Assembly: GCA_965218865.1 (NCBI GenBank)
Contig: CBDCME010000073.1
Location: forward strand, 289,158 to 353,157
DNA from: Alphaproteobacteria bacterium
GTDB taxonomy: Bacteria; Pseudomonadota; Alphaproteobacteria; JAAXGF01
Length of the DNA stretch: 64,000 nucleotides
Direction: 5' to 3'
Shown here piece by piece: positions 13,171 through 64,000 of the stretch. The first letter of the stretch is position 1, and each line of letters starts with the position of its first letter. The notes beneath the pieces were generated by a model. That model saw only the letters and a program-made list of their open reading frames with translations. It was not told where the DNA came from and did not search any database. The translations under genes were made by a program, and so were the position numbers.

Positions 13171-13178
13171 CCCGCGGA

Positions 13179-40882: not shown

Positions 40883-40911
40883 ATTTAGGGCGCGATCACA
40901 GGGATCCGATC

Positions 40912-41631: not shown

Positions 41632-41633
41632 AT

Positions 41634-41765
41634 GTCTGTTCGAAAATGCGCGTCCGCGCATTTTTTGCGTCCGTTCCGGCCCCCACCCGGCCACCCACGA
41701 GAGGTTGCTGATAGGGGTGGCCGGGAGGGGGCGGGGGCCGGCGCCGCGAGTTTTCGAACAGACTG
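41634..41765. repeat. MITE/REP-like palindromic element, copy 3 (inverted relative to copy 2)
   Basis: Begins 3 bp after the PCD-gene stop codon. Confidence 0.65.
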
Positions 41766-41871
41766 TTAAGACATTTAGCAAGATGATTTGCCTGCCACGC
41801 TGAGCCTCACGAGGGCGTCGCATGATTTCTTGGCCACGAGTCTTCCCTCGTCCTCCGTCGGAAGTGCCGGC

Positions 41872-42401: not shown

Positions 42402-43180
42402 TTAGGGTTGCAGGCACCCAGGTGACCGTTCTTCGACCAATTTTTTGAATTCCGGATCGGCAATCAGTCTTTCCGCGACGAGTTTCCCCAGTACGCTGCT
42501 GCCAAGTGGTGTCGTGTGTGTAAAATCCACGAAATGGCCGTGTTCGGAACGCAGAAACGGTCGAGGGTCGATCAATAAGGCGCCAGTTTCATTAGCTGTC
42601 TTCGTAACGACGCGACTATAGGCGGCGTAGACATCCAGAAAGCCCTGGACGGTCATATAGGGGAACAATGGTAGGCGATAACTTGCGGCGCCCAATTGCT
42701 CCCCGGGGGACTGATCCGCCCGCAACCGACGGGCATTATTGAGAAGCACGACCCGACGGCCTTCGTTTCCGACGATATCGACAAGATTGCGCAACCGGTC
42801 CCCGAACAAGGCCACGATTATTAGCGGGTTGATTTGCGGTTTTCGGTGTTCGATATGGGCGCTTCGCAGCAACTGAATAACGGCCATATTTTTCTTGATT
42901 AGTTTCCATAAAAGCAAGATTTCGGTGAACCAGCTCGGACGATATTGACGGGCTGACAATCCCTTATCGCGGGCGACTCGTCTCACGTCGAAGTTGAAGT
43001 CGCTGGCCAAGATTACGACGACATCGGGGTCGGTCTCTGCAACGTGACGCTGATAATGCAGTAGGATTTTCTCGGGTGACATCCCCGGAACGCCAGAATT
43101 TACATAGTCGAACCGGCAATCCTTCAGGTTCTCTTGAATCGTCCGCCACGCAATGAGTCGTCCGTGAAGAACCCTGATTT
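42402..43180 (-). pseudogene. SGNH/GDSL-family hydrolase, 5'-truncated by IS5-like insertion
   Basis: Block II-like NSGVPGMS is present, but no GDS block I. The ORF N-terminus runs into the IS. Confidence 0.4.
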
Positions 43181-44660: not shown

Positions 44661-44801
44661 ATTACTTCGCCAAACCGAAAGAGCTACCAACATCAGCCGC
44701 TTACACGTTCTTCACGGGCGACTGCCTAGGCTTCCCACACGCCCGCCGAATCCGAATTGTCGTGAGTAACACGAAAGCGCAAAGAAGGGAACCCCCAACT
44801 T

Positions 44802-46884: not shown

Positions 46885-47212
46885 CCCCAACTTGGGAGTT
46901 CTTGTCACGCAGACGATTTGATTGGATAAAAAAGAGGCCGCTCGGAGAGACCCAGACCTCGGCGTAAATCGAATAAAGGAACCCCAGAGCGACCGCCGCT
47001 TGCCGTAACTTGTCGAAACCACTTCTACGGCTAGTGGCGGCGCGTGTCAACGGTAGAACGCCGTTGAACGGTCCCTCCCCGTCGCTCTTTTTCCCAACAT
47101 GGCGTGATCTCCCTTACGGAGGGACCAATGACGCATTCCATGCGCCGCGGCCGCGCGAGCGACGCCAACCTCGCCGTGCTGAAGACAACCGAGCATTTCC
47201 AGGGACTGCCAT

Positions 47213-48565
47213 ATGGCTTTGGGCGGTTCGGTCTCCTGCGCTTGGTCAAGGACAACGGCAGGAACAAGAAGACTAAGGCTAGGCGCGAGCGCGATAGCTC
47301 ACTACGAATTCCTTCTCCGATGGACCAGGGACAGGGACTGGACGGAACCGTGCGAACGGCCCGTCGTCTTCCTGCCGGTCGGCAAGACGGCCGAACTACG
47401 GGGCTTGACCGAAGGCCGGGTCCGGCAACTCGAATACGAACTCAACGAGGCCGGGCTGCTCACCTGGACCGACAGGGGCGACTACCGCAGGGGCGGAAAG
47501 CGGGATGCCGATGGGCTCATCCTCTTCGCCCACGGCGTGGACCTCTCTCCTGGGGTTGCAATGTTTCCCGAGTTGTTGAAGACCGACGCCAGGCGGCGGA
47601 AGGAAATTGAGGAACGAACCAAACTGCGGACGCACATAACAAAGCTCAAGGGCTCCGTCAGGCCCCTGCTCGACCGCGCCATCGAGGACGGACTGATAGA
47701 ACCCGGTAAGGCCGAATGGCGGAACACCACCGGAATGCTTTCCACCCGGACGGACGGCAACACGCCGCCGAAGCGGCTTAAAGAGACCGCCGCAAAATTG
47801 GACCGGCTGAGGGCAAGGCTGAGCGGGCGCGTCGAGGCAAACGCCCACTCCATAAAAGCCCTGGGCGGCGGTTGTGGAAAAGCCCGGAAAGCCTGTGGGC
47901 GGACGCGAAAAACTATCGGCGCGTCGATAGAAAACTATCGACCCACAAATACTACAAGGAATCAACAAACCGATAAATCGGTTACTAGTACCCCGTGCTG
48001 TGGACAAAGTACCGCCTGGGGCGGAAATACGGACGCGCCTTCCGGCGCGAAGTCATCCATTGAAACGATCGACGGCAGGGAAAAAGGGGGTCGCGGCCTG
48101 GAGGCCAGGAAAGAGCCTCCGAAGGGAGATCACGACGCCAACGCCGAAAGAGGGCGGGTATGGCGCCAGGCGGGAACGGTCGTGGACGGCCTGGCCGGAA
48201 ACCCGCGGGCGAAAGGCGGCGGGACAGCCAATGGTCCGGACTCGTCTCCCGGCCGCCCTCCAAAGGGCCAATTGTGGAAGCCGGACACGGGAACCCGGCA
48301 CATCAGCCTGCTTAATGCCGTGGAAATCGCCGGGATGCGGCTCCGAAACCGCATCCCGCGAACCGAACAGACGGATTGGGATGCCATCGAGGACGCCGCG
48401 GAAGACCTGTGCCCCGAACTCGGCATCAGCCTGCGGGCGTGGTGGATGGCCGTGACCATTATGGGGCGCAGGGCGGCCGCGGTCTGCGTCATGATCATCG
48501 ACCGGAAAATGTGCCCGATGCGGAAGACCCGGTGCGCTGTCCCGGCGCCTACCTGCGCGGCATGA
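47213..48565 (+). CDS. repC: RepC-like replication initiator protein
   Basis: N-terminal region VVFLPVGKTAELRGLTEGRVRQLEYELNEAGLLTWTDRGDYRRGGKRD and C-terminal LRAWWMAVTIMGRRAAAVCVMIIDRK resemble RepC N- and C-terminal domains (memory). A possible N-terminal extension lies in another frame (47128..), suggesting a frameshift. Confidence 0.5.
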   Translation: MALGGSVSCAWSRTTAGTRRLRLGASAIAHYEFLLRWTRDRDWTEPCERPVVFLPVGKTAELRGLTEGRVRQLEYELNEAGLLTWTDRGDYRRGGKRDADGLILFAHGVDLSPGVAMFPELLKTDARRRKEIEERTKLRTHITKLKGSVRPLLDRAIEDGLIEPGKAEWRNTTGMLSTRTDGNTPPKRLKETAAKLDRLRARLSGRVEANAHSIKALGGGCGKARKACGRTRKTIGASIENYRPTNTTRNQQTDKSVTSTPCCGQSTAWGGNTDAPSGAKSSIETIDGREKGGRGLEARKEPPKGDHDANAERGRVWRQAGTVVDGLAGNPRAKGGGTANGPDSSPGRPPKGQLWKPDTGTRHISLLNAVEIAGMRLRNRIPRTEQTDWDAIEDAAEDLCPELGISLRAWWMAVTIMGRRAAAVCVMIIDRKMCPMRKTRCAVPAPTCAA

Positions 48566-48694
48566 CGGCCCGCGCCCGGGACGACGAGCTTCACCTTCAC
48601 GCCAGCGTGTTCGGATGGGCGCGGAGAGCAGCAGCCTAACGCTTGCCGATGCCAAGCAGGAGACGGCAACGGCAGGGGTGCACAGGAATGAAGG

Positions 48695-50212
48695 TTATCG
48701 TTTCTCGGCCTTCCGGGCGGGCGGGGCGGTGATCTCGGGATAGACCGCGGTCATCACCCGCCACAAATCCGGCCATCCCCCGGGCTTGAGGCGGATACGG
48801 ACCGTGGACCCGTACATCCTGTCCGCTATGGGCGTCAGCGTTATTTTCTCGACCACCAGGCGCAGGGCATCCCTCAGGTATCCCGCCCGCGCCTGTTCGA
48901 GCAGATCCAGCTTCATCCGGTCAAGGGCGCGCCCGAGGGCGAGCCGAACCTCCCTTTCCGACGCCGGAAGCCCGGGAACGGTCTTTATCGCATTCTTCGC
49001 CGCCGTCAATCCCTTCTCTAGCTCCGCCATCCGCTGAAAGACACGTTCGGTCAGCAGTCCCCTTTCGGCCACCTTCAGGAGTTTCTCGATGCCACGGTTC
49101 TTCTCGGCGATCTCCTTCTCCAACGCGGCACGCCGCTCCCGGGCCCCCTCGACGAGAGCGTTCACGCCGGCGAAAAGACCGCGCTGCCGGGACAGGGATT
49201 TCCGCAGGGCCGGGAACAGCGCCCGCACCAGCTCCGGCACCCGCTTGCCGCGCGTGTTGTTGCACGTCCTGGTATAGCGCGCGTCGGCGCAGACGTACTG
49301 CCCCAGATTGGCCAGATGCGCCATGCCGCCGCAGCGCCCGCAACGAACCAGGCCGGTCAAAGGCTGGACGTTGTGGGGATTCCACTCGTGCCAGGCGCGT
49401 TTCTTCGATGCCGGACGCGGCTCCGCCTTCGGCTTGGACTCCCCGCCTGCTTGCGGCCCCCGCTGGCTCAACATGGTCCGCGCGCGATTCCACAGCCTCT
49501 CATTCACGATCCGCAGATGGGGAACCGGCGTGCGGATCCATTCCGATTCAGGATTGATCTTTGGCCGAGACCTTTTCGTCACCGGGTCGGTCACCCGCCG
49601 CGTGCGGTTGTAGACAAGGACGCCCTTGTAAATCTCGTTGCGCAGGGTGCCATCGCCGTTGGACCCCTTCCCATAGATGCTGGCGAACCGCCAAACCGCC
49701 CCGGAAGGCGAGGGGAGGCCGTCGGCGTTCAAGTCCCTGGCTATCGTCTTAATGGGCTTTCCGGCAACGAACTCCTTGAAAATCCGCCGCACCACCACCG
49801 CCTGGGCCTCGTCGATCTCCCGCAGGCCGTTAACGTTCCGGTTCTTCCCGTCGACCACCCCGCGTATCACCCGGTATCCGTAGGCGCGGCCCGAGGCGCG
49901 GCCCGAGGGCTGGCGCCCTTCCTCCGCGCGGGCGCGCTGGCCGCGCCTGATTTTGTCTTTCATGTCGTCAAGATAAATTGCGTTCATCGTCCCCTTGAAG
50001 CCGACGTGAAGCCAGGTGATCCTTCCTTCGTGGGCGGTGTGCATGCCCACCTCATAATACACCAGCCGGGCGTAGATCGCGGCGACGTCCTCCAGACTCC
50101 GGGTAACCCGGTCCAGCCCCTCGGCGACGACGACATCGAACTCCTTCCGTTCCGCGGCCTCCAGCAGCGCCTTCAGACCCTGGCGCCTGTCGGTCGCGCC
50201 GGTGAGTTCATG
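48695..50212 (-). pseudogene. large serine recombinase, C-terminal part (gene split by tandem IS66-like insertion)
   Basis: Recombinase domain, zinc ribbon (CGRCGG ... C) and coiled coil. Reading upstream to the IS junction gives the catalytic-domain sequence ELTGATDRRQGLKALLEAAERKEFDVVVAEGLDRVTRSLEDVAAIYARL. Confidence 0.7.
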
Positions 50213-50272
50213 GGTAATTGTTCGTTCAGGCCGTGGAATCAGCGCGGGCGTTTCTATCCGCCCCGGCGGATT

Positions 50273-51154
50273 TTAGCGATTGAGGCTGCGTTTCCAGTCT
50301 CGTCGCAGGGGCCGGAGCCAGACATCCTTTTTCGGCTTGTCAAACTGCCTGTCCCGGTCGTAGCGCCCGCGCCCCTGGGTGGCGCCGACATGGATCCAGC
50401 CCGATGCCCTGTAGACCGCGCCGGTATATCGCGGGGTCTCGACGAATGTCTCGATGAGCACGGGCGTGGTGTTGTAGCGCTCGGTCCAGTCGTCGGGCAG
50501 GCGCCGGCGGATGATGGCGAGGATGTGCGAGCCCAGGTTGGGGATCTTGATCCAGGGCAGGATCAGGAACCTCGGGTTGTCGACCACGAAGGGAAGGTTC
50601 TTCTCGCGCAGTTGCCGTGTCCATCCGATGAAGGTGTCGCGCGTGGCAAGCTTCCACGCGGCGGTGGAGAAGCCGAGCATGGCGAGTGGCCAGCCGTTTC
50701 GGTCATGGACGGCATAGCGCATCTGGGCGCCGACCAGGGTCTTGTATCCGAGATAGTGGTAGCGGGCGACGAACTCGTTCCAGAGCTTCCCTTCCCGGGT
50801 GCCGCGCACGACGGGGTGCAGGTCGAGCGGACGGACCTCGTCGAGGGTCGTCGGGGCCGGGAACAGCGGCGGTTCGGTGTCCGGCCCGAAGACGATCGGC
50901 CCGGGCCGGTTCTGCCGTCCCCGCGGCGCCGGCAGGGCGATCAGGCCGTCCCTGTGCATGGCCAGCATAGCGACCCTGGCCATCATGTCCTTGAGGCCGC
51001 CGTCGGGCTTGAACCAGCCGATGCGCCGGCAGAACTCCTTCGACAGCATATGGCGGTTCAACGGCGGCGGCCCGGCGATCAGCGCGCGCAGCAGCGCCAT
51101 TTCCCCGGCGGTGAAATCGCGGCCGTAATAACGGCACTCGATCTTGCCGGTCAT
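50273..51154 (-). CDS. standalone DUF4338 (DruA-like) protein, translationally coupled to tnpC
   Basis: Start MTGKIECRYYG overlaps the tnpC stop as ATGA. Motifs FIGW, DNPRFLILPW, ETFVE, YRASGW. Confidence 0.7.
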   Translation of the reverse strand: MTGKIECRYYGRDFTAGEMALLRALIAGPPPLNRHMLSKEFCRRIGWFKPDGGLKDMMARVAMLAMHRDGLIALPAPRGRQNRPGPIVFGPDTEPPLFPAPTTLDEVRPLDLHPVVRGTREGKLWNEFVARYHYLGYKTLVGAQMRYAVHDRNGWPLAMLGFSTAAWKLATRDTFIGWTRQLREKNLPFVVDNPRFLILPWIKIPNLGSHILAIIRRRLPDDWTERYNTTPVLIETFVETPRYTGAVYRASGWIHVGATQGRGRYDRDRQFDKPKKDVWLRPLRRDWKRSLNR

Positions 51155-53820
51155 CCCGGCGCCATGAGCTCGCGCCTGCGGTCCTCGCTCATCGACCATG
51201 GCAGCCACGGCGACATGTCATCCGGCGGTTTGCGGCCGTTCTTCGCGCAGGCTTCGAGCCACGCTTCCAGCCAGCGCAGGACGTCGATGCCGTTCATCGA
51301 GAGCGTGCCCACCACCGAGTACATGATCGCCGTGAACCTGGCGCCGTCCTCGCTGTTCGAACCGAAGCTTAATCGTCGTCCGATGACTGGCCCCCGGAGC
51401 GCGCGCTCGGCCTTGTTGTTGTCCATCGGAACCTGTGGCTTGTCGACGAAGACGCACAACCCCTCGCGGTGGTTGAGAAGCGAGCGCAGCGGCTTGGCCC
51501 TGCGCGCCCTCTCCGACAGGCCGGCCAACTCCGCTTCGGCGTCCGCGAACAGGCGGGCGACCGCCGCTTCCAACTCGCCCTGCGCCGCGTCGAACGCCGG
51601 TGTCCGGCGTTCGAGACCGGGGTCGTAATGCTCCAGCCGCGCCTCGTTCAGCCGGTAGATCTCCGCGATCCGCTCGATCCATCCCTGGCACCAGCCCGTC
51701 AGTCTCACCTGGCCGGCCGCGCACTCGATAAAATCGCGGCGCATATGGGACCAGCAGAATGCAAGGGTCACCTTGCCCTCGCGAAGGCGAGCGAGTCGCT
51801 TGTAGGCGCTATAGCGGTCGCAGACGATGACCGTGTCGAGGAGGCCTTCGGCGAACAGCTCGAGCGCCGCCTCGGCGCTGCGCGAGGGGTCGATATGGAA
51901 AGAGACCGCGTCATTGCTGACCGAGGTCCACAGCCAGGCCCGGCTCGACCGGTCTTCCCCGCGAAGCTCCTGGACGCGCCAACCGGTCTCGTCGGCGTGG
52001 CGCAGCGCCGCCTTGTTCTGGTGCGCGAGGATCGCCTTGGCGACCGGCTCGAACAGCGGCACGAAACGCTTCAGGCTGTCGGCCAGCGTCCCCGGTGAGA
52101 CCCCCAGGCCCTGGCTGGAGAACCACGCGGCAACCCGGTGCAGGGGGCGCAAGCAGGCACAGTGCTCGAACAGGAAGCGTGCCCAGAAGCTGGTCCCGTA
52201 GAGCGTCCTGGGGAACAGCCGCAGCACCGGGGGCGACGACACTTCCATGGGCGACGACGCGCACTCGCAGGTCCGGCGCCAGCGCGGACGGCGGATCACA
52301 CGCTTGTGGGCCTTGACCTCGATCTCGACGAGGGTGGATTCCTCGGCGCCGTTCGGCGCATAGGGCTGCCCGCACCGTCCGCAGACGCACGCATCCGGCG
52401 GCGGGTTGTGCTCTTCGGTGCGCTCCTTGAGCCCGGGCCGCTGGGTGCGGCCATGGCCGGGCGCGCCGCGCTGCTGGCCGCGCTTGCGTTCCGAGCCCGG
52501 CTTGTCCTGCTGTTCGCTCTTGCGGCCGTAGAGCGCCCTCGACAGCACAGCTCCGGTCGCGCGAAGCCTCTCAAGCTGGACTTCCAGCGTCTCGATCCGG
52601 TTCCGCGACGTCTTCGCGCCCTTGCGCAGCCGGGCGTTCTCCCGGGACAGCGACTTGATCGTGGCCTTCTGGCGCCGCGACCTTCGCAGAGCCCTGCGGA
52701 GATCGGCGTCTGCAACGGACAGCGACTTCGACAACGTCTTCCTGACCGCTCGAAGCCCGGCAAGCTCGGACTCGAGTGCCTTCCTGATCGCGCGAAGCTT
52801 GGCAGGCTGAACCTCCAGCGCCGCTTTCCGGGTCTCCAACTTCCGCATGGTCCTGCGCAGACGGGCGTTGTCCTTGCGCAGCGCCTCGATCGTCGTCTTC
52901 TGGCGCCGCGCTCGCCGCAACGCCGCGCGCAATTGAGCGGCCTCGTCGGACGGCAGCTTCGACAGCGTCGCCCCGGCCGCCCGGAGCTTGACGAGCCGGG
53001 CCTTCAACTTCTCCTGCCCGGCCTTGAACACCTCCAGGGCATGGCGCAGCCAGAAGACCTCGTCGGACAGCGATCGGGCCCGGGCCTCGCTGTCGCCCAG
53101 TATCCTCACCTCCCGATGGAGCCGAAGGGACTCGCTGGACAGCTTCCTGGCGGCCTCCCTGATGCTCTCCGTGCTCTCCTTCTCCCGGTCGAGGCGCTTG
53201 TTCAACTGGAGGATCTGCTTGTCCCGCCGGACCGCCTCGTTGTTGAGCCGGGTGATCTCCTTGCGTAGCGTCCTGATGGTGTCCTTCTGGTCCGGGGATC
53301 GCTCCAGGGCGGTGAGCCGCCGACGGGTCTCCGCGGGCCGCGGGCCGATCGCGCCCTCTCGGGCCTCCGGCGCGACCAGGGCCTTGCGCAGCCGGGCGTT
53401 CTCCTTGCGCAGCGCCTCGGTCGTGCTGCTCTCGTTCGACCCGATGCCGGCTTCGGAGAGGAGCGTCTCCAGGCGCGCCACTTCGGCCTGCAAGGAAGGC
53501 ACGTCCCTTGCCGCGCGGCGAGCTTCCTTCGTCTCCTCGACGGCCTCGCTCAACCTGCGCCGGCAGGCCTTGAACCGCGACTTCCACGAGCCGGCATCGC
53601 TACGCGAGGCCACTTCCGCCCAGCGTAGCTCTTCCGCGCGCGCTTCGGCCGCGTCCGCGCGGGCGCGCTCCCGCTCATACAGCGAGCGCAAGTCGCGCGG
53701 CGCGCGCTCCGGTAAGGACACCGGGCACGACCGGACCCCGCCATTACCCTCGACCAGCGTCAGGTCGGTGCCAAAATCCTCGTCCAGAACCGCCATGCGC
53801 TCGACGATAGCGCACGGCAA
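51151..53820 (-). CDS. tnpC: IS66-family transposase TnpC with extended N-terminal coiled coil
   Basis: 889 aa. Zinc-finger CxxC (ACVCGRCGQP) and the IS66 DDE core (HADETGWRV ... CDRYSAYK ... CWSHMRRDF). The N-terminal ~450 aa form a coiled coil with repeated (T/A)I(K/E)xLxxENARLR motifs. Confidence 0.8.
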   Translation of the reverse strand: MPCAIVERMAVLDEDFGTDLTLVEGNGGVRSCPVSLPERAPRDLRSLYERERARADAAEARAEELRWAEVASRSDAGSWKSRFKACRRRLSEAVEETKEARRAARDVPSLQAEVARLETLLSEAGIGSNESSTTEALRKENARLRKALVAPEAREGAIGPRPAETRRRLTALERSPDQKDTIRTLRKEITRLNNEAVRRDKQILQLNKRLDREKESTESIREAARKLSSESLRLHREVRILGDSEARARSLSDEVFWLRHALEVFKAGQEKLKARLVKLRAAGATLSKLPSDEAAQLRAALRRARRQKTTIEALRKDNARLRRTMRKLETRKAALEVQPAKLRAIRKALESELAGLRAVRKTLSKSLSVADADLRRALRRSRRQKATIKSLSRENARLRKGAKTSRNRIETLEVQLERLRATGAVLSRALYGRKSEQQDKPGSERKRGQQRGAPGHGRTQRPGLKERTEEHNPPPDACVCGRCGQPYAPNGAEESTLVEIEVKAHKRVIRRPRWRRTCECASSPMEVSSPPVLRLFPRTLYGTSFWARFLFEHCACLRPLHRVAAWFSSQGLGVSPGTLADSLKRFVPLFEPVAKAILAHQNKAALRHADETGWRVQELRGEDRSSRAWLWTSVSNDAVSFHIDPSRSAEAALELFAEGLLDTVIVCDRYSAYKRLARLREGKVTLAFCWSHMRRDFIECAAGQVRLTGWCQGWIERIAEIYRLNEARLEHYDPGLERRTPAFDAAQGELEAAVARLFADAEAELAGLSERARRAKPLRSLLNHREGLCVFVDKPQVPMDNNKAERALRGPVIGRRLSFGSNSEDGARFTAIMYSVVGTLSMNGIDVLRWLEAWLEACAKNGRKPPDDMSPWLPWSMSEDRRRELMAPG

Positions 53821-53984
53821 ATTCCGTTACCAGCAGAAAGACAGCACCTCGTGGGCTTCGCCTCAACTTGGGAAATGCGCTTGACGGCACCCATTCCACG
53901 GCCTGAACGAACACTTACCGCGCGTGTAATTGTTCGTTCAGGCCGTGGAATCAGCGCGGGCGTTTCTATCCGCCCCGGCGGATT

Positions 53985-54866
53985 TTAGCGATTGAGGCTG
54001 CGTTTCCAGTCTCGTCGCAGGGGCCGGAGCCAGACATCCTTTTTCGGCTTGTCAAACTGCCTGTCCCGGTCGTAGCGCCCGCGCCCCTGGGTGGCGCCGA
54101 CATGGATCCAGCCCGATGCCCTGTAGACCGCGCCGGTATATCGCGGGGTCTCGACGAATGTCTCGATGAGCACGGGCGTGGTGTTGTAGCGCTCGGTCCA
54201 GTCGTCGGGCAGGCGCCGGCGGATGATGGCGAGGATGTGCGAGCCCAGGTTGGGGATCTTGATCCAGGGCAGGATCAGGAACCTCGGGTTGTCGACCACG
54301 AAGGGAAGGTTCTTCTCGCGCAGTTGCCGTGTCCATCCGATGAAGGTGTCGCGCGTGGCAAGCTTCCACGCGGCGGTGGAGAAGCCGAGCATGGCGAGTG
54401 GCCAGCCGTTTCGGTCATGGACGGCATAGCGCATCTGGGCGCCGACCAGGGTCTTGTATCCGAGATAGTGGTAGCGGGCGACGAACTCGTTCCAGAGCTT
54501 CCCTTCCCGGGTGCCGCGCACGACGGGGTGCAGGTCGAGCGGACGGACCTCGTCGAGGGTCGTCGGGGCCGGGAACAGCGGCGGTTCGGTGTCCGGCCCG
54601 AAGACGATCGGCCCGGGCCGGTTCTGCCGTCCCCGCGGCGCCGGCAGGGCGATCAGGCCGTCCCTGTGCATGGCCAGCATAGCGACCCTGGCCATCATGT
54701 CCTTGAGGCCGCCGTCGGGCTTGAACCAGCCGATGCGCCGGCAGAACTCCTTCGACAGCATATGGCGGTTCAACGGCGGCGGCCCGGCGATCAGCGCGCG
54801 CAGCAGCGCCATTTCCCCGGCGGTGAAATCGCGGCCGTAATAACGGCACTCGATCTTGCCGGTCAT
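53985..54866 (-). CDS. standalone DUF4338 (DruA-like) protein (copy 2)
   Basis: Identical to the 50273..51154 product. Confidence 0.7.
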   Translation of the reverse strand: MTGKIECRYYGRDFTAGEMALLRALIAGPPPLNRHMLSKEFCRRIGWFKPDGGLKDMMARVAMLAMHRDGLIALPAPRGRQNRPGPIVFGPDTEPPLFPAPTTLDEVRPLDLHPVVRGTREGKLWNEFVARYHYLGYKTLVGAQMRYAVHDRNGWPLAMLGFSTAAWKLATRDTFIGWTRQLREKNLPFVVDNPRFLILPWIKIPNLGSHILAIIRRRLPDDWTERYNTTPVLIETFVETPRYTGAVYRASGWIHVGATQGRGRYDRDRQFDKPKKDVWLRPLRRDWKRSLNR

Positions 54867-57532
54867 CCCGGCGCCATGAGCTCGCGCCTGCGGTCCTCGC
54901 TCATCGACCATGGCAGCCACGGCGACATGTCATCCGGCGGTTTGCGGCCGTTCTTCGCGCAGGCTTCGAGCCACGCTTCCAGCCAGCGCAGGACGTCGAT
55001 GCCGTTCATCGAGAGCGTGCCCACCACCGAGTACATGATCGCCGTGAACCTGGCGCCGTCCTCGCTGTTCGAACCGAAGCTTAATCGTCGTCCGATGACT
55101 GGCCCCCGGAGCGCGCGCTCGGCCTTGTTGTTGTCCATCGGAACCTGTGGCTTGTCGACGAAGACGCACAACCCCTCGCGGTGGTTGAGAAGCGAGCGCA
55201 GCGGCTTGGCCCTGCGCGCCCTCTCCGACAGGCCGGCCAACTCCGCTTCGGCGTCCGCGAACAGGCGGGCGACCGCCGCTTCCAACTCGCCCTGCGCCGC
55301 GTCGAACGCCGGTGTCCGGCGTTCGAGACCGGGGTCGTAATGCTCCAGCCGCGCCTCGTTCAGCCGGTAGATCTCCGCGATCCGCTCGATCCATCCCTGG
55401 CACCAGCCCGTCAGTCTCACCTGGCCGGCCGCGCACTCGATAAAATCGCGGCGCATATGGGACCAGCAGAATGCAAGGGTCACCTTGCCCTCGCGAAGGC
55501 GAGCGAGTCGCTTGTAGGCGCTATAGCGGTCGCAGACGATGACCGTGTCGAGGAGGCCTTCGGCGAACAGCTCGAGCGCCGCCTCGGCGCTGCGCGAGGG
55601 GTCGATATGGAAAGAGACCGCGTCATTGCTGACCGAGGTCCACAGCCAGGCCCGGCTCGACCGGTCTTCCCCGCGAAGCTCCTGGACGCGCCAACCGGTC
55701 TCGTCGGCGTGGCGCAGCGCCGCCTTGTTCTGGTGCGCGAGGATCGCCTTGGCGACCGGCTCGAACAGCGGCACGAAACGCTTCAGGCTGTCGGCCAGCG
55801 TCCCCGGTGAGACCCCCAGGCCCTGGCTGGAGAACCACGCGGCAACCCGGTGCAGGGGGCGCAAGCAGGCACAGTGCTCGAACAGGAAGCGTGCCCAGAA
55901 GCTGGTCCCGTAGAGCGTCCTGGGGAACAGCCGCAGCACCGGGGGCGACGACACTTCCATGGGCGACGACGCGCACTCGCAGGTCCGGCGCCAGCGCGGA
56001 CGGCGGATCACACGCTTGTGGGCCTTGACCTCGATCTCGACGAGGGTGGATTCCTCGGCGCCGTTCGGCGCATAGGGCTGCCCGCACCGTCCGCAGACGC
56101 ACGCATCCGGCGGCGGGTTGTGCTCTTCGGTGCGCTCCTTGAGCCCGGGCCGCTGGGTGCGGCCATGGCCGGGCGCGCCGCGCTGCTGGCCGCGCTTGCG
56201 TTCCGAGCCCGGCTTGTCCTGCTGTTCGCTCTTGCGGCCGTAGAGCGCCCTCGACAGCACAGCTCCGGTCGCGCGAAGCCTCTCAAGCTGGACTTCCAGC
56301 GTCTCGATCCGGTTCCGCGACGTCTTCGCGCCCTTGCGCAGCCGGGCGTTCTCCCGGGACAGCGACTTGATCGTGGCCTTCTGGCGCCGCGACCTTCGCA
56401 GAGCCCTGCGGAGATCGGCGTCTGCAACGGACAGCGACTTCGACAACGTCTTCCTGACCGCTCGAAGCCCGGCAAGCTCGGACTCGAGTGCCTTCCTGAT
56501 CGCGCGAAGCTTGGCAGGCTGAACCTCCAGCGCCGCTTTCCGGGTCTCCAACTTCCGCATGGTCCTGCGCAGACGGGCGTTGTCCTTGCGCAGCGCCTCG
56601 ATCGTCGTCTTCTGGCGCCGCGCTCGCCGCAACGCCGCGCGCAATTGAGCGGCCTCGTCGGACGGCAGCTTCGACAGCGTCGCCCCGGCCGCCCGGAGCT
56701 TGACGAGCCGGGCCTTCAACTTCTCCTGCCCGGCCTTGAACACCTCCAGGGCATGGCGCAGCCAGAAGACCTCGTCGGACAGCGATCGGGCCCGGGCCTC
56801 GCTGTCGCCCAGTATCCTCACCTCCCGATGGAGCCGAAGGGACTCGCTGGACAGCTTCCTGGCGGCCTCCCTGATGCTCTCCGTGCTCTCCTTCTCCCGG
56901 TCGAGGCGCTTGTTCAACTGGAGGATCTGCTTGTCCCGCCGGACCGCCTCGTTGTTGAGCCGGGTGATCTCCTTGCGTAGCGTCCTGATGGTGTCCTTCT
57001 GGTCCGGGGATCGCTCCAGGGCGGTGAGCCGCCGACGGGTCTCCGCGGGCCGCGGGCCGATCGCGCCCTCTCGGGCCTCCGGCGCGACCAGGGCCTTGCG
57101 CAGCCGGGCGTTCTCCTTGCGCAGCGCCTCGGTCGTGCTGCTCTCGTTCGACCCGATGCCGGCTTCGGAGAGGAGCGTCTCCAGGCGCGCCACTTCGGCC
57201 TGCAAGGAAGGCACGTCCCTTGCCGCGCGGCGAGCTTCCTTCGTCTCCTCGACGGCCTCGCTCAACCTGCGCCGGCAGGCCTTGAACCGCGACTTCCACG
57301 AGCCGGCATCGCTACGCGAGGCCACTTCCGCCCAGCGTAGCTCTTCCGCGCGCGCTTCGGCCGCGTCCGCGCGGGCGCGCTCCCGCTCATACAGCGAGCG
57401 CAAGTCGCGCGGCGCGCGCTCCGGTAAGGACACCGGGCACGACCGGACCCCGCCATTACCCTCGACCAGCGTCAGGTCGGTGCCAAAATCCTCGTCCAGA
57501 ACCGCCATGCGCTCGACGATAGCGCACGGCAA
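54863..57532 (-). CDS. tnpC: IS66-family transposase TnpC (copy 2)
   Basis: Identical to the 51151..53820 product. Confidence 0.8.
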   Translation of the reverse strand: MPCAIVERMAVLDEDFGTDLTLVEGNGGVRSCPVSLPERAPRDLRSLYERERARADAAEARAEELRWAEVASRSDAGSWKSRFKACRRRLSEAVEETKEARRAARDVPSLQAEVARLETLLSEAGIGSNESSTTEALRKENARLRKALVAPEAREGAIGPRPAETRRRLTALERSPDQKDTIRTLRKEITRLNNEAVRRDKQILQLNKRLDREKESTESIREAARKLSSESLRLHREVRILGDSEARARSLSDEVFWLRHALEVFKAGQEKLKARLVKLRAAGATLSKLPSDEAAQLRAALRRARRQKTTIEALRKDNARLRRTMRKLETRKAALEVQPAKLRAIRKALESELAGLRAVRKTLSKSLSVADADLRRALRRSRRQKATIKSLSRENARLRKGAKTSRNRIETLEVQLERLRATGAVLSRALYGRKSEQQDKPGSERKRGQQRGAPGHGRTQRPGLKERTEEHNPPPDACVCGRCGQPYAPNGAEESTLVEIEVKAHKRVIRRPRWRRTCECASSPMEVSSPPVLRLFPRTLYGTSFWARFLFEHCACLRPLHRVAAWFSSQGLGVSPGTLADSLKRFVPLFEPVAKAILAHQNKAALRHADETGWRVQELRGEDRSSRAWLWTSVSNDAVSFHIDPSRSAEAALELFAEGLLDTVIVCDRYSAYKRLARLREGKVTLAFCWSHMRRDFIECAAGQVRLTGWCQGWIERIAEIYRLNEARLEHYDPGLERRTPAFDAAQGELEAAVARLFADAEAELAGLSERARRAKPLRSLLNHREGLCVFVDKPQVPMDNNKAERALRGPVIGRRLSFGSNSEDGARFTAIMYSVVGTLSMNGIDVLRWLEAWLEACAKNGRKPPDDMSPWLPWSMSEDRRRELMAPG

Positions 57533-57630
57533 ATTCCGTTACCAGCAGAAAGACAGCACCTCGTGGGCTTCGCCTCAACTTGGGAAATGCGCTTGACGGC
57601 ACCCATTCCACGGCCTGAACGAACACTTAC

Positions 57631-57787
57631 GTTCATGGTCCGAAAACACAGCCGCTTCGCCGCCAGGGACACAGAACTCCCGCTCGATCAGCCTTCGGCA
57701 CAGCGCGACCTGATCGGCGACGCTCAGCGGATTCTGAATTTTCGACGAATAGCGGGCGTAGATTGCCGCTTTCGGCTTCGCTTTCAT
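57631..57787 (-). pseudogene. large serine recombinase, N-terminal fragment (catalytic Ser region)
   Basis: MKAKPKAAIYARYSSKIQNPLSVADQVALCRRLIEREFCVPGGEAAVFSDHE, then the IS66 TIR. It continues in frame with the 48695..50212 fragment across the insertion. Confidence 0.7.
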
Positions 57788-57959
57788 CGTCTTCCTTGCA
57801 TCGCGCACGGAGACGGAAACCTAGCGGTTTGCCGGTGAAAGTCAAAACGCCCGCAGAGGGGTCCATCAGGATCGGCGCGGACGGCGCAACGCATTGATAT
57901 ATCGTTGAAATTCTATTTCGACCCGGAGCGTTCATCGACGCGCGAAGCCGTAGGGATTC

Positions 57960-58255
57960 CAATGCGCGCAACGAAAAACATGGAAAAACATGATTATCGG
58001 AAAGCGAAACATGAAAAAACATGATTTGCCCGTAACATATTGATTTATCGCCTTGAATCCCAAACCATGCCGAACATTTCCGCAATTTGCTGAACGTTAC
58101 GACCAGTTTCACAAACCTTTCGTGTCCATGCAACCCATTGATATAACATCATATTTTCCTTAAATTTCCTACAATTTCCCTAAATTTATCTGATTTCCTT
58201 AAATTTCCTGCCGTTTGATGGCAGGTTATGCAATGTGGGCCCACACATTGCCCAC
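57960..58255. repeat. AT-rich iteron-like region (4x AAACATGA, 3x TCCTTAAATTTCCT-like, two short palindromes)
   Basis: GC drops far below window average. Direct repeats at 57974-58024 and 58155-58208. Palindromes CCTGCC-N7-GGCAGG and GCAATGTG-N6-CACATTGC. Confidence 0.45.
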
Positions 58256-58429
58256 GGCCTTTGTCCGCGGATGCTTATTTCGCGCCTCCGGCGCTCAACG
58301 CTGTAAAAGGGAGTTTTGATTTGCGGCGGCTGTTTTAGCAGCCGGCAAGGCGGCGCGGATTCGCTGGAAAGATTGCCCCAAAACATGGGCCGGGCTCGGC
58401 GGCCGGCGGCTTCGGGGAGCGATTCCCCC

Positions 58430-61134
58430 TCAGCGCCCGAGGCCGCTTTCGGCGGCACGCGACGGCGCCAGGCGGGACAGCCCGGCCAGTTGCCGCCTGA
58501 TCTCCGGGCGCCGGGCCGCCTCGCGCCACATCTCGCCGAAGGTTGTTTTGCCTTCTTTCGCCGGAGGTGGAACGATCACCTTGCCGTTCACCGCCTTGGC
58601 GGCTTCCCTAGCGTCGGACCGCCCCCTCGCCGCCGCGGCGTTATCGGTGGCGACAACGATTCCGGCCTTCGGATGTTTGAGGCGCCACGCCTCGGCGACC
58701 GCCTTGAGGTTGTCCGCACCGAAGGCGCAAAGCGTCCGCCGGCCCGTGGCCTCGTGGATGGCGGCGGCGGACGCCAGGTCCTTGGCGATAACGGCGTCGC
58801 CCTTGCCGCCGGGTTTCTCCTTGCCGATCCCGAACATCAGGCCCTCGGGGCTTCCGGAGGCCCAGGCGCTCGGCGGTCTCGCCATTATCGTCCAGGGCGC
58901 ACAAGCCCCAGACGCGCCCGCTTGCATCGGTCAACGGAACCAGGACATGCTTGTCCCGGCGCAGGTTCTCCACGGGAAGGCCGGGCGGCAGCCCTTGCGG
59001 CGTACCGTCCTTGCCGAGGGGCTCGGCGTTTCGCCAGCGCAGCCACACGGCGTCCCCCGGCGGGACGGGCCAGCACATCGCGGATTTTGTCGGGATCGCC
59101 CGCCCTTTCCGCGAACGACGCGGCGCCTTCGGGAACGGCGAGGGTGGCGCGCGTTTCCCCGGCCGATTCCTTCAGGGATCCGGCCCGTTCCTTGTCCGCC
59201 GCGATGACCAGCTTGCCGTCCGGATAGCGTTCCCGCAGCGCCCGCGCGAGGTCTCCCATCTTGTCCGCCTCTTCCGCCACCGCCCACGGGCAGCCTCGTG
59301 GCCTTGTGGATCGCCGCGCCCGAGAGATAGTCGCCGGCGACGACGATCGCGTCCTTGCCGGCCCGCCGCCCCGGATCGATCACGTGCATCAGCGCCCAGA
59401 CCCACGCCGCCGTCCTGGCCTGAACCCTGCCGGCGCGGCGCGTCCCGCCGTCCCTGGCGATGAACTTGACATCATGGAGCCGGCCGTGGACGTCCTTGAG
59501 CGGCATGGCCACGCCGCCGTCCGGCGCCAGCTTGAGGCCGAATCCTCGGACCCGGTTCTCCATCAGCCAGGGCGTGTTGCCGGGGGTGGTCCCACGGCGC
59601 GCCCTTGAGTTCCGTCCACGCCATTTGCGCCTTGTCGCCCACCAGAGGCGCGAGCCTTGCCCGCAAATCCGCGGGCTTCACCGTCCCGGTCCGATCGTCG
59701 TTCCATTCCTTCACTTCCAGGGCCTCGACGCCGACCGCCCTGGCCCGCTCGGCGAAAGCCGCCGCCCCGGCGGCCGCGATCTTACAATCCGCATGTTTGG
59801 CGCGCAGGCAGGCGGCCGCGGCCTTGAGGTCTCCGCCCTTAGGCACCAACGCCACAGGCGCGTGCGCGGCGTTGCGAACGGCGGCGGCGGCGGCGATATT
59901 ATCGGTTAGCACCACGGCCGGGGGCTTCCCGCCCGCTTCGATTCTCCGCTCCGGGTCGATGACGTGCAGCAATCCCTTCTTGCCGAGGTTTCCGATCTCC
60001 GTCGTCTTTCCGTCCGGCTTGAGAACCTGCAAGCCCCCATACGTGGCCGTCCTTGCCGCGGAACGGAACCATCAGGTTGCCGCTTCCGTCCTCCCTCAAT
60101 CCCAGACTCCGCGCCCCGCCCTTTTCCTTGACCCACGGCCCGGCCGTTCCATCCGCCCACTTGCCCGCGTCGATCCAGTGCCTCAGTGCCGGACGCAGGG
60201 TCCGGGGCAGCCGGTCCCGGCCACCATCGCCGAAGGCCCGGAACATCTTCTTGTAGGTCATGATGACGACCAGGGCCAAGGGATCGCGGTAGGCCTCGTT
60301 GATGAGAAACTGCTTCCAGTCCGCCGCTATTCTCCCGGCCAGCGTTTTCGGACGCCTTCTCCGTCCAGTGAAGGTCCGCCACAGGCGCGAAGCCCCGGGG
60401 TGCCGGGTCAGGGGCTTTGCGCTGTAGCGCCGGCGCGGCTTGGACGCGCTCGCCTTGTCCATGGATTCGTAAGGGCCCAAGCGCTCTTTCAGCTTGCTGA
60501 ACGTGAGGTCCGGGCCCGCGAGGCTCGCCTTGACCACCTCCGGGCCGTCCCGCCGTTTCAACGCCAGGCCGGCGCCGCGCCGTTTGATCTCGATATCGAA
60601 GGCGGCGAGCCCCTGGTGCAACTCGCGCCAGGTGCGCGCCTTCCCGGCGATCCCGAGAATCTCTTTCCTGTTGTCGAGAACGTGGTTCTGAAACGATTGG
60701 CGCCAGGTCCGCGCCTCGAAGTCCCGCGCCGCCGGGTGCGCAACGGCGCGGCCCTTGCCGTCCCGGTTGTCGTAGTCGGACCCGCCGAGATCGACGTGAA
60801 GCCCGTACTTTCTCTCCATCGCCCGGCACGTCCTCTCCAGCGCCTTGTAGTCGTTCCACGGCGTGTGGACCGTCAGCTTCCCGGGATGGACCCTGTTGAT
60901 GGCCACGTGCATGTGAAAGTTGTCGGTGTTTTCGTGCGTCCCCGCCACCCGCTGGTGCTCGCCGAAGCCCAGGGCCTCGGCGATGGCCAGGTCCAGGTCC
61001 ACCTCGTCCCCGCCGGCGCAATTGACCGTCCACAGGTCCACCAGCTTCTCGCCCTTTTCCTTGGCCGCCGCGATGTATCCGGACAAGCACCCGAATTTTC
61101 CCTTCACCGTCCGGCCGATCTTCTTGGCGATCAT
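58430..61134 (-). pseudogene. traI: MOBP-family relaxase (RP4 TraI-like); N-terminal relaxase domain intact, C-terminal region broken over at least 4 frames
   Basis: N-terminal part 59899..61134 shows MIAK ... YI ... VNC ... GFGEHQRV ... HENTDNFHMHVAINRVHP (3-His motif). Downstream, repeated about 90-aa modules appear in the ORFs 59472..60032, 58931..59563, 58885..59280 and 58430..58927, each in a different frame. Confidence 0.7.
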
Positions 61135-61391
61135 CCGCGCCCGGAGATTTTCACGATGCAGGCCCCGATCAATTTTTGGGTCTCGCGGATTCCCTCGTAC
61201 AGCTTCCTCGTCTCTCCGATAAACGCGGACGAGACGCGGCTCGCGCCCAAGGCGTCCAGCACCGCCAGGAGGAGATTACCGAGCCGGGCCTGATCGGCGT
61301 TGACCTTCATCAAATCGCGCCGCGCCGACGCCTCGATCCGGCTCGCAGGGATTCCGCGGCCCACCACGAGGCGGCGGACGTATTCCGACAC
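61131..61391 (-). CDS. mobC: MobC-like relaxosome accessory protein
   Basis: 86 aa. Motif DLMKVNADQARLGNLLLAVLDAL resembles the MobC family. Stop/start overlap with the relaxase gene. Confidence 0.55.
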   Translation of the reverse strand: MSEYVRRLVVGRGIPASRIEASARRDLMKVNADQARLGNLLLAVLDALGASRVSSAFIGETRKLYEGIRETQKLIGACIVKISGRG

Positions 61392-61654
61392 GGGACAATC
61401 CCAAACGGGAGGCGGCGGCGCAAATCCCGGCCTTTTCCTCCGCGCTTACGTAAGCCTTCAAGAAAATCTGCTGGCGGCGCTTCTTCCTCGCCACCGCTAT
61501 CCGCTTTCCGGCTTGGCCCGGCTCGCCGGCTGGATGATTGAACCCGCCGGGCGCGGCCTCGTCCCCGGCGTCCACGGTTGCCGCTTCACCGCCGTCCATT
61601 CCATGTCTCATCTTTCCCTGCCTCCACCCCTTTTTCCTCTGCCGTGATCCCTAT

Positions 61655-61712
61655 GACGGCTTGCGACCGCAAGCCGTCACACCCTTGATTTTACCCCGTT
61701 TCCGGTATCCGG
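61655..61712. promoter_or_regulatory. candidate oriT (12-bp inverted repeat TGACGGCTTGCG..CGCAAGCCGTCA followed by nic-like GGTATCCGGCG)
   Basis: Strong inverted repeat about 270 bp upstream of mobC. The nearby TATCCGG is one mismatch from the MOBP nic core ATCCTG. Confidence 0.3.
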
Positions 61713-61850
61713 CGCCAGTTCCGGCACATGATCCGGACGGTGCGCCGGGAAGAGGGTGGAGTCGGGCCGGGAGGGTCCGATCACGGGAGGGTCGGAGAGG
61801 ACGTTCGTCCGCCCTTCCGGTGCCGAAACCCCTTCCTGGAGAATTGGACC

Positions 61851-62102
61851 ATGGCCCGCACCAACATCACGTCCGAGCACAAGCGCGCCTTCGAGGCGTT
61901 GACGAGCCGGGAACCCCATAACTTCGCCCTCTTCAGTTGCCGAGTCGATAACGAACCCGCCGCGGCGATCGTTGCCGTGACCGTCGATCCCCGCGCGCGA
62001 AAGGGCGGGGAACCCGAGTACCGGATCCGGCCGATGTTCGTCTCGGTCACCCCCGGAATGCGCCTGACCGATCATGACGGCCGGGAGGCTTGTGAGCGAT
62101 GA
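61851..62102 (+). CDS. hypothetical small protein (leading-region-like position)
   Basis: 84 aa starting MARTNITSEHKRAFEAL. In frame with the downstream PAPS-reductase-like gene, but separated from it by a TGA. Confidence 0.35.
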   Translation: MARTNITSEHKRAFEALTSREPHNFALFSCRVDNEPAAAIVAVTVDPRARKGGEPEYRIRPMFVSVTPGMRLTDHDGREACER

Positions 62103-62183
62103 AACGCGATTTCCCATTCCCGCGATTCCTCCATCATCCCGCCCCCGGAGTGCATCGAAGCATTCGCGCGGGGCGCCCTTTTC

Positions 62184-62958
62184 GTGGTCAATCACTCAGG
62201 CGGCAAGGATTCCCAGACGATGACGATCGCCCTCCGACGCCTCGTCCCGCCCGATCAATTGCTGATTGTCCACGCCCCGCTCGGCGACGTCGAGTGGCCG
62301 GGAACGGTCGAGCACATCGAGAACACCATTCCACCCGGCGTGCCCCTCGTCCTCGCCCCAACCGCTTCCGCCAAGACGCTGCTGGAACGCATCGAGGAAC
62401 GCGGACGATTCCCTGATAGCGCGCGCCGCTGGTGTACCTCGGATTTCAAACGCACACCCATCGAACGAGAGATCCGGCGCTATCTCAAGGGCCATCCGCG
62501 CTATTCCGGCCGCATCGTCAACTGCCTCGGCCTGCGGGCCGAGGAAAGCCCAACCCGGGCGCGCCGTCCCGCCTGGAGTTTCAACGCCCGCAACAGCAAG
62601 GCCGGGCGCGAGTGGCACGACTGGCTGCCGATCTTTCGCATGACCCGCGGCGAGGTGTTCAAAACCATCCGCCAAGCCGGGCAAAACCCCCCATTGGGCC
62701 TACGCGGCCGGCATGACGCGGCTGTCGTGCAGCTTTTGCATCCTGGCCTCTCGTTCCGATCTCGCTACGGCCGCCCGACTCAGGCCGGCGCTCTACCGGC
62801 GCTACGCCGCACTGGAACGCCGTATCGGCCACACCCTGTCGCCGGCGCGAAACCCCCTTCCTGAAATCACGGGGATTTCCACGCCGGATCCATTCCCCAG
62901 CCTGCCTCAAATCCGCCTTCCGGCCCCGGAGAGGGAGAGTCCGGTCTTCGAGGGGTGA
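62184..62958 (+). pseudogene. phosphoadenosine-phosphosulfate reductase family protein (PP-loop SGGKDS), frameshift in a C6 run near 62685
   Basis: N-terminal frame to ...IRQAGQNPP. The C-terminal frame (62713..62958) holds the conserved Cys motif HWAYAAGMTRLSCSFCIL. The two frames join if one C is removed from AAAACCCCCCATTGG. Confidence 0.6.
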
Positions 62959-63022
62959 GGGGCCGGCGTTGGAGCGAGAGGTTCCGCCCGGGCCGATAAC
63001 CCGCGAACGAGGAGCATGAGCG

Positions 63023-63377
63023 ATGAAACTTCTGACCGACGAGCAGCGCCAACGGATGATCGACAACGGCCGCGTCAACGCCGCCCACATCGCCCGCGAC
63101 GGCAACACCCAGGACTTCACCCCGGTAGTTAAGCTGTTCTGCCCCTGGGGGACGGGCACCTGGCTGTTGTCGGAACTGAATTCCGAAGACCGCGATGTTG
63201 GATTCGGACTCTGCGATTTGGGCCATCCGGAGCTTGGCAACGTAAGCCTATCCGAAACTGGCGGCGGTGCGCGGCCCGGGCGGCCTCGGCATCGAGCGCG
63301 ACCTTCATTTCAAGGCCAGGGCGACGCTTTCCGAATACGCCGCCGAGGCGCGCGAGAGCGGCTTCATCCGCGCCTGA
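63023..63377 (+). pseudogene. DUF2958 family protein, frameshift at GAAACTGG (63253-63260)
   Basis: MKLLTDEQRQRMIDNGR ... VVKLFCPWGTGTWLLSELNSEDRDVGFGLCDLGHPELGNVSLSE in frame 2. It continues as LAAVRGPGGLGIERDLHFKARATLSEYAAEARESGFIRA* in frame 0. Confidence 0.55.
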
Positions 63378-63443
63378 CCGCGCGAACCCCCATTCCACAC
63401 CGGGGCCGCCCAGACGGAGGTCCCGCAACCTTGGAGACCTGCG

Positions 63444-64000
63444 ATGTCCGAATCCGAGATTCGTTCCATTCCCCTGAGCCAATTGGAACTCTCCCCCGCC
63501 AACGTGCGCACGGCCCCGGCGGGCAAGGCGGCCGACGCCGAGCTGAAGGCCTCGATCGCCGCCCACGGGCTTCTGGAGAACCTGGTCGCCCGCTGTTTCG
63601 GCCCGGGTCCGGACGGTGTTGGCCGCTACGCCGTGATCGCCGGTGGCAGGCGCCTGGCCGCCTTGCGGGACCTCGCCCGCGACGGCGCGATCGGCGAGGA
63701 CTTCCCCGTGCCCTGCCGCATCACCGGCAACGCCGCCGAGGAGAAGGAGCTGTCCCTGGCCGAGAACACCGTGCGGGTGGCCATGCATCCGGCCGACCAG
63801 GTCCGAGCCTTCGCCGCCCTGGCCGACGCCGGTTCCGGAACCGCCGACATCGCCACGAGATTCGGCGTCTCCGAGCGCACCGTCGCGCAGCGCCTGCGCC
63901 TCGGCAACGCCGCGCCGGAGATTCTCGACGCCTACCGGGACGGCGGCATCGGCATGGACGTGCTGACGGCGTTTGCCCTGACCGCCGACAGGGAGCGCCA
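63444..64000 (+). CDS. ParB/Srx-like nuclease domain protein (partial, continues beyond window)
   Basis: MSESEIRSIPLSQLELSPANVRT ... YAVIAGGRRLAALRDL ... LAENTVRVAMHPADQVRAF are typical ParB N-terminal domain motifs. No stop codon before the window end. Confidence 0.65.
   Translation, partial: MSESEIRSIPLSQLELSPANVRTAPAGKAADAELKASIAAHGLLENLVARCFGPGPDGVGRYAVIAGGRRLAALRDLARDGAIGEDFPVPCRITGNAAEEKELSLAENTVRVAMHPADQVRAFAALADAGSGTADIATRFGVSERTVAQRLRLGNAAPEILDAYRDGGIGMDVLTAFALTADRER

Follow-up and report, generated by a model that had tools for sequence, protein, structure and literature searches.

The right-hand part of a 64,000-nucleotide stretch of contig CBDCME010000073.1 (hereafter the window), from an Alphaproteobacteria bacterium, raises the question of whether frameshifts clustered in a mobile element record the decay of that element or errors of its assembly. 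The first-pass annotation, made from the letters of the sequence, had described the DNA from position 46900 onwards as a decaying integrated plasmid or mobilizable element in the chromosome, and had taken its frameshifts for authentic decay. It now seems fairly likely that an integrative mobilizable element, which probably replicates transiently, starts at about 44.78 kb and runs past 64 kb, that insertion sequences (IS) lock it in place, and that its single-base insertions and deletions (indels) are mostly consensus errors. The gene set initially proposed was borne out by an ORF list, a frame plot of third-position G+C and Pfam scans; it comprises a RepC-like initiator, a large serine recombinase, a mobC-relaxase operon and the hypothetical, PAPS-reductase-like, DUF2958 and ParB-like genes (Table 1). 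The left flank of the element is core chromosome; the right end lies outside the window, which stops within the ParB-like gene, and the "17 kb" of the annotation is therefore a lower bound only.

Two distant relatives, the contigs L006 and L009, carry the core of the element at other loci. In L006, the NikA-like gene, the relaxase (48% identity), the serine recombinase (48-67%) and RepC (34-65%) follow in the same order and orientation as in the window, and a tRNA-Glu gene located about 270 bp past repC is followed by glyoxalase and ABC-transporter genes; in L009, phaE/phaC-type genes are followed by RepC (53% identical) and then by the convergent recombinase. Since the core order is kept in two distant relatives beside different housekeeping-type DNA, the segment is best read as an integrative mobilizable, possibly replicative element. 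The comparison with related genomes that the annotation had called for thus indicates that the core is not a conserved backbone, and agrees with the proposal of an integrated mobilizable or plasmid-like element bordering the core chromosome.

The serine recombinase gene contains no frameshift and is cleanly split by an insertion at 50214-57630. In the alignment with the L006 recombinase, which contains PF00239, the N-terminal exon (AIYARYSS) covers residues 9-51 and the C-terminal part residues 54-527; removal in silico of the insertion together with one duplication copy yielded an open 555-aa recombinase frame, which aligns to the L006 homologue across the junction, so the gene was inactivated by insertion and not by frameshift. 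The insertion is a head-to-tail dimer (7.4 kb) of an IS66-family element; in each copy, a 311-aa DruA/DUF4338 protein is encoded in addition to a DDE_Tnp_IS66 transposase of 889 aa. The 8-bp target duplication GTTCATGG (50206-50213 and 57631-57638) surrounds the pair of copies and not each copy. This dimer, which the annotation had overlooked, makes up 43% of the 17 kb that had been counted as plasmid-like DNA. The locus illustrates cleanly how the knockout of an integrase gene by an IS dimer fixes the element in the chromosome.

The clustering of frameshifts that the annotation had noticed is real: the roughly 9.7 kb of the element that is not IS contains 12 single-base indels, versus one frameshift in the chromosomal part of about 40 kb. 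Their spectrum is one-sided, with 11 of the 12 being +1 (two-sided binomial p ~0.006 under equal rates), and the seven indels that could be resolved to the base all lie in short homopolymers (affected runs of 2-4 bases); neither a nonsense codon nor a multi-base indel nor a larger deletion was seen in the element genes. Alignment of the homologues P0122-P0129 to the RepC-like gene by tblastn proceeded in three frame segments, and five successive +1 corrections opened the path of the relaxase from 61134 to 58432; the corrected relaxase path is backed by the L006 alignment, and alignments between the modules of this protein cross the inferred junctions. The contig L001, an independent Logan assembly of the run ERR13605531 covering 61121-63052, matches the window at 1926 of 1932 positions, the remainder being two substitutions and four gaps, all of which are extra homopolymer bases in the window. 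All four indels covered by L001 are absent from it, and the NikA-like and PAPS-reductase-like genes are intact there. Chromosomal controls, i.e., L002 (1,445 bp), L026 (18,312 bp in two blocks) and L027 (2,228 bp), showed 0 gaps and 7 substitutions; the chance that all four indels would fall within the element's 8% of the compared bases is about 4e-5, and the substitution divergence of the element (0.10%) is close to that of the chromosome (0.03-0.07%). The unique DNA of L026 is flawless, yet its IS DNA (about 2.4 kb) contains 46 gap openings, which shows that good quality in unique sequence does not guard an assembly against indels within mobile DNA.

Table 1. Features of the element, its borders and its single-base indels (window coordinates).
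Feature	Position	Strand	Description
IS5-like element	43155..44723	-	452-aa transposase; Pfam DUF772 + DDE_Tnp_1
Approximate left tip of element	44780..44801	.	similarity to L009 fades here; exact end not identifiable
ISAs1-like IS, copy 2	44802..46884	-	DruA/DUF4338 + DDE_Tnp_1_assoc + DDE_Tnp_1
repC upstream region	46894..47127	+	palindrome TCAACGG-N7-CCGTTGA at 47047-47067; candidate operator or promoter
RepC-like initiator	47128..48639	+	503 aa reconstructed; Pfam RP-C + RP-C_C
RepC-like indel	47258-47289		+1; homologue tblastn, reconstruction
RepC-like indel	CCC run 48510-48512		-1; homologue tblastn, reconstruction
Large serine recombinase, C-terminal 503 codons	48695..50213	-	Pfam Recombinase (E=2.3e-22) + Zn_ribbon_recom
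IS66-family IS, copy 1	50214..53918	-	3,705 bp; ends GTAA...TTAC; 26-nt inverted repeats
Spacer between IS66-family copies	53919..53925	.	7-nt CGCGCGT; unrelated to target duplication
IS66-family IS, copy 2	53926..57630	-	3,705 bp; 100% identical to copy 1
Serine recombinase, N-terminal exon	57639..57787	-	MKAKPKAAIYARYSSKIQ..., MKAKPKAAIYARYSS; catalytic-serine motif
AT-rich intergenic region	57790..58431	.	54% A+T; candidate oriV iterons or regulatory region
MOBP-type relaxase with three Toprim-like modules	58432..61134	-	~900 aa reconstructed; MobA/VirD2 Relaxase + TraI_middle (Pfam)
Relaxase indel 1 of 5	GGGGG run 60034-60038		+1; pinned by L006 alignment
Relaxase indels 2-5	four further sites		+1 each; reading-frame path
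NikA-like (MobC-type) relaxosome accessory gene	61131..61611	-	159 aa; intact in L001 (NikA-like, E=7e-12 there)
NikA-like indel	~61392		+1; GGG vs GG, L001 comparison
Candidate oriT hairpin upstream of nikA	61655..61678	.	GACGGCTTGCG-ACC-GCAAGCCGTC; perfect 10/11-nt inverted repeat
Intergenic indel	~61754		+1; L001 comparison
83-aa hypothetical gene	61851..62102	+	intact; no Pfam match
PAPS-reductase-like gene	62099..62958	+	Pfam PAPS_reduct; two +1 indels
PAPS-reductase-like indel	~62113		+1; CCC vs CC, L001 comparison
PAPS-reductase-like indel	~62683		+1; AAAA vs AAA, L001 comparison
DUF2958 gene	63023..63377	+	Pfam DUF2958 (E=9e-24); one +1 indel
DUF2958 indel	~63255		+1; AAA vs AA
ParB-like gene	63444..64000, runs off window	+	ParB_N/HTH_ParB; weak Pfam matches

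Most of these indels are probably consensus errors of the source assembly and not biological pseudogenisation, a reading preferred because of their single direction, their position in short homopolymers, the 2:1 indel-to-substitution ratio and the chromosome-like substitution divergence. The opposite explanation, that the element is a genuinely decaying relic, in which relaxed selection after immobilisation let real frameshift mutations build up, is the strongest of the alternatives, though an unlikely one. Four indels in 1.9 kb of the element stand against none in about 22 kb of chromosome in independent assemblies, relaxed selection is plausible for an element whose recombinase was truly inactivated by an IS, and L001, with its two substitutions, may represent a different, intact copy. 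Real pseudogenes also exist in this genome: the frameshift in a Glu/Leu/Phe/Val-dehydrogenase-like gene (9540-10722; a +1-type shift producing two overlapping frames, beside an IS4-like pair) is identical in the independent contig L026, which marks it as a genuine pseudogene or a systematic call. This reproduced frameshift serves as an internal control, in contrast with the element indels that are absent from L001. Bacterial decay is, however, usually deletion-biased, as Mira et al. are said to have reported in 2001, and neutral decay leaves several-fold more substitutions than indels, the opposite of the 4:2 ratio of indels to substitutions in the comparison with L001; natural slippage is rare in runs as short as 2-4 bases. 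The lack of nonsense codons and multi-base indels, as well as the closeness of the element's substitution divergence to the chromosomal one, also speaks against real decay. The errors would be concentrated in a mobile and probably heterogeneous or low-coverage stretch, a conjectural reason for their confinement to this segment.

The authentic frameshift decay that had been claimed is poorly supported, given the direction and homopolymer context of the indels, the lack of nonsense codons and the L001 contig; correction of the frameshifts by raw reads, which the annotation had named as the finding that would count against it, was obtained in part, by the proxy of this assembly. Its word "decaying" holds for the recombinase, destroyed by the IS dimer, and for the left tip, where two IS are situated, and is not supported for the frameshifts. 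The secure lesions of the element are IS insertions only. A frameshift cluster in an assembled mobile element can thus mimic pseudogenisation while bearing, as here, the signature of consensus error, and treating such genes as decayed would lead to a wrong estimate of the element's potential for mobility.

The left border is more complex than the annotated start at 46900, which is merely where an ISAs1-like IS (copy 2) ends. This IS is flanked by its own 9-bp target duplication CCCCAACTT (44793-44801 and 46885-46893), so it is a simple insertion, positions 44801 and 46894 were formerly contiguous, and the element DNA extends further to the left. The alignment with L009 shows strong similarity from repC to the insertion point of the ISAs1-like IS, which fades about 20 bp past it; the loss of similarity about 350 bp upstream of repC is what an element end should produce, and places the tip of the element as given in Table 1. 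Further outwards, an SGNH-hydrolase-like gene (42402-43154) is truncated by the IS5-like element, which has 17-nt inverted repeats (43156-43172 and 44707-44723) and shows neither a target duplication nor an att site at its junction; the Logan contig L002 terminates 30 nt within it. Removal in silico of the IS5-like and ISAs1-like elements did not recover the N-terminus of the hydrolase, and attB could therefore not be defined. The original left junction (att) of the element is lost, and the IS5-like element sits in its place.

The ISAs1-like IS is present in two inverted copies of 2,081 bp (38305-40385 and 44802-46884), each with its own 9-bp duplication (TTTCCGACA and CCCCAACTT, respectively). 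The copies are identical save for a GG insertion at 45674-45675 in copy 2, which is not a homopolymer extension and disrupts the transposase frame of this copy relative to copy 1. An inversion between the two copies was considered as the cause of the left border and rejected, because each copy has its own matching duplication. An IS630-like transposase gene (34559-35657), split into two overlapping frames and adjoining a PAS-domain fragment and amtB, lies where the IS-rich zone ahead of the element begins.

This border bears on a second alternative, a plasmid joined to the chromosome via IS, either as a real cointegrate or as an assembly chimera across repeated IS. Such a fusion would account for an outermost left junction formed by an IS5-like element that lacks a target duplication and lies between a truncated chromosomal gene and the element, and for several identical IS copies nearby; the putative iteron and recombinase-upstream region is intact and thus was not split by integration, and a distant RepC-like gene beside relaxase and type IV secretion system genes is found on a true plasmid, of 104 kb, from Microbulbifer. 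On the other hand, the ISAs1-like copy nearest to repC has its own duplication and so is no recombination joint, while L006 and L009 have the same repC-proximal end, with non-element DNA about 270-350 bp away, at two different loci, one of them a tRNA gene, which fits a defined element end and not a random IS fusion. The Microbulbifer match, weak (26.5% identity, tblastn), is also the only one for this type of RepC among 72,556 plasmid records, and a megablast search of both halves of the element against the same records gave no match; the free plasmid that the annotation had proposed to look for, even a near-identical one, was not present among them. An IS-mediated plasmid fusion consequently appears rather improbable, and distinctly less plausible than real decay of the frameshifted genes. 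The idea that the segment is conserved chromosomal backbone with no mobile element is effectively refuted, for all that its G+C content (65%) is near the chromosomal 62%, by a gene content entirely of the mobile-element type, by the presence of the core at different loci in the relatives and by the want of close homologues of the element, versus near-identical chromosomal contigs for the Ruv/Tol region.

Within the element regarded as integrative and mobilizable, the RepC-like protein matches both domains of alphaproteobacterial repABC plasmid RepC proteins above the cut-off (the RP-C N-terminal domain PF03428 with 61.9 bits, E=8.6e-17, and the RP-C C-terminal domain PF11800 with 35.9 bits, E=9.3e-9). 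Unlike repABC RepC, it contains a long low-complexity central insert, conserved in its subfamily; its gene lacks adjacent repA or repB partners, with no ParA/ParB-type genes upstream of it in the window or in L006 and L009, and its neighbours are a serine recombinase and a relaxase where a repABC plasmid would have a partition operon. The block GGCGGCGCGTGTCAACGGTA.AACGCCGTTG.ACGGTCCCTCCCCGTCGC upstream of repC is conserved in L009 and partly in L006. A scan of JGI metagenomes with the RepC alignment found 15 distant RepC loci (28-40% identity), none of which was near a relaxase or recombinase.

The AT-rich region between the recombinase and the relaxase, a putative site of RepC action, contains GAAAAACATG-type repeats (57967-58026), a 10-bp array TTTCCTTAAA (58155-58209; 5.6 copies with a period of 10 according to TRF), an inverted repeat CCTGCC-N7-GGCAGG (58207-58225) and a palindrome GCAATGTGGGCCCACACATTGC (58230-58251). 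The motif TTTCCYWMAA occurs four times in the window, always at 58155-58203 (0.6 occurrences expected), and none of 100 shuffles reached four, so the array behind the iteron-like region of the first-pass annotation is real. A matching layout is present upstream of the L009 recombinase, where TTTCC repeats are followed by CCTGYCGTTTGATGGCAGGTTA.

The relaxase matched PF03432 and PF22863, contains the histidine motif HMHVAINRV and shares the Relaxase and TraI_middle domains with MOBP TraI/MobA(P) relaxases such as RP4 TraI and R64 NikB; among 5.8 billion proteins, its closest matches are 45-48% identical, the named ones being TraI/MobA(P) of Magnetospirillum and Thalassospira. The C-terminal part (58432-60100) consists of three Toprim-like modules in tandem, with pairwise identities of 31-35% and with the Pfam domain Toprim_3 reached by the last one only, while the closest relatives of the protein have a single Toprim-like module and about 540 aa. 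As in MOBP systems with a NikA/TraJ-like accessory protein, the NikA-like gene overlaps the start of the relaxase gene. Upstream of it, where a candidate oriT had been put forward, a hairpin is present, with a predicted DNA fold of -16.1 kcal/mol (z=-5.4 versus shuffles), and it remains a candidate.

The divergent genes on the other side of the hairpin resemble a leading region. Homologues of the ParB-like protein are abundant (60-76% identical), and in one relative the genes after the ParB-like one are DUF3768, ArdC and a large helicase, as is typical of leading regions; a scan of the GTDB species representatives with the ParB-like fragment returned two irrelevant Streptomyces loci only, the patterns being possibly too strict. 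The TGA stop of the PAPS-reductase-like gene (window position 62956) is CGA in L001 (1832), where the ORF continues into the start of DUF2958, and L001 is hence not just the window with its errors removed.

A number of observations weigh against the interpretation as an integrative element with mostly artefactual indels. No close relative was found (>61% for any core protein), no counterpart of the oriT hairpin sequence was conserved in the distant relatives, and no att sites, right end or type IV secretion genes are visible within the window, so that recombinase-mediated integration and the status of an integrative mobilizable element (IME) versus an integrative and conjugative element (ICE) are unproven. 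As for the indels, four of the twelve could be checked directly against independent sequence; L001, given its two substitutions relative to the window, may not belong to the same strain, and the four indels may then be true differences. The recombinase gene (1.7 kb) has no indels, an uneven distribution for random error, and the frameshifted 450-aa RepC ORF occurs on three contigs, which represent either independent reproduction or one assembly deposited three times.

If the element works as its gene content suggests, the serine recombinase would excise and integrate it, and RepC, acting on the iteron region, would maintain the excised circle. The NikA-like protein and the relaxase would nick the DNA at an oriT near the hairpin, the DNA would be exported via a type IV secretion system, either the element's own or that of a helper, and the divergent genes (those for the 83-aa protein and the PAPS-reductase-like, DUF2958 and ParB-like proteins) would enter the recipient first and may aid establishment. 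The copy in the window would be fixed in place by the IS66-family dimer in the recombinase gene and by the IS-scrambled left end.

Such a combination has precedents. PMC5704250 (2017) describes IMEs with serine recombinases (Tn4451-type) and with plasmid-type initiators (GISul2, with RepA/RepC, and the IncP islands), and places those with serine recombinases mainly in Firmicutes. The window element shares with IMEs its own recombinase, its own relaxase with an accessory protein, a candidate oriT, a plasmid-type initiator, a ParB-like gene and relatives at different chromosomal sites, although it could be an ICE. It differs from the serine-recombinase IMEs of Firmicutes in residing in a high-G+C proteobacterial-type chromosome and from GISul2 in its initiator, since the RepC of GISul2 is of the IncQ type and that of the window is a distant RP-C protein (repABC-type fold). 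With both kinds known already, this is a fairly ordinary mobile element, and outside Firmicutes it adds a type of element that combines a serine recombinase, RepC and a MOBP relaxase. Tentatively, it may stand for an undescribed proteobacterial family of integrative, replicative and mobilizable elements, characterised by a divergent RepC with a conserved iteron array, a serine recombinase, a MOBP relaxase with tandem Toprim-like modules and varied chromosomal sites; separately, and just as tentatively, the IS66-family dimer may be what is left of a "copy-out-paste-in" intermediate, a circle or a dimer.

The IS forming this dimer shares DDE_Tnp_IS66, GTAA termini and an 8-bp target duplication with ISBst12-like members of the IS66 family, which lack tnpA/tnpB; it has a transposase and a DruA/DUF4338 ORF only, and not the canonical tnpA-tnpB-tnpC set. 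Unlike ISBst12-like elements, it has an accessory DruA/DUF4338 (GNAT-like) gene, a long transposase with a coiled-coil N-terminus of about 450 aa, and the head-to-tail arrangement with a 7-nt spacer. The anatomy of the insertion points to transposition of an already formed dimer in one piece, or else to recombination of a circular IS with a resident copy; how this IS family transposes is poorly characterised.

The window is also of value for what it shows, in passing, of tandem IS dimers and of IS families that carry DUF4338. A second tandem pair (10678-15671) is formed by a 2,482-bp IS4-like element with a 776-aa DruA/DUF4338 + DDE_Tnp_1 transposase; its layout is X-IS-X-IS-X, where X is CCCCGCGGAG, and the copies differ by one base (12059, Val/Ile). 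At the same site, the independent contig L026 has a single, inverted copy with numerous indels. The DruA/DUF4338 domain, described as GNAT-like (PMC10853773), is found in three unrelated IS types of the window, the IS4-like (10779-13106), ISAs1-like (38383-40179) and IS66-family (50273-51208) elements, where it is fused to the transposase or adjoins it; a literature search found no paper on the association of DruA/DUF4338 with IS transposases. Rfam and tRNA scans of the window revealed no RNA genes. The chromosomal intergenic DNA contains REP/MITE-like repeats of about 90-150 nt in both orientations (5524-5673, 40745-40887 and 41629-41766), with the internal palindromes GGCCACCC...GGGTGGCC and GCGCGGACGCGC, and the Logan contig L002 breaks within one of these copies.

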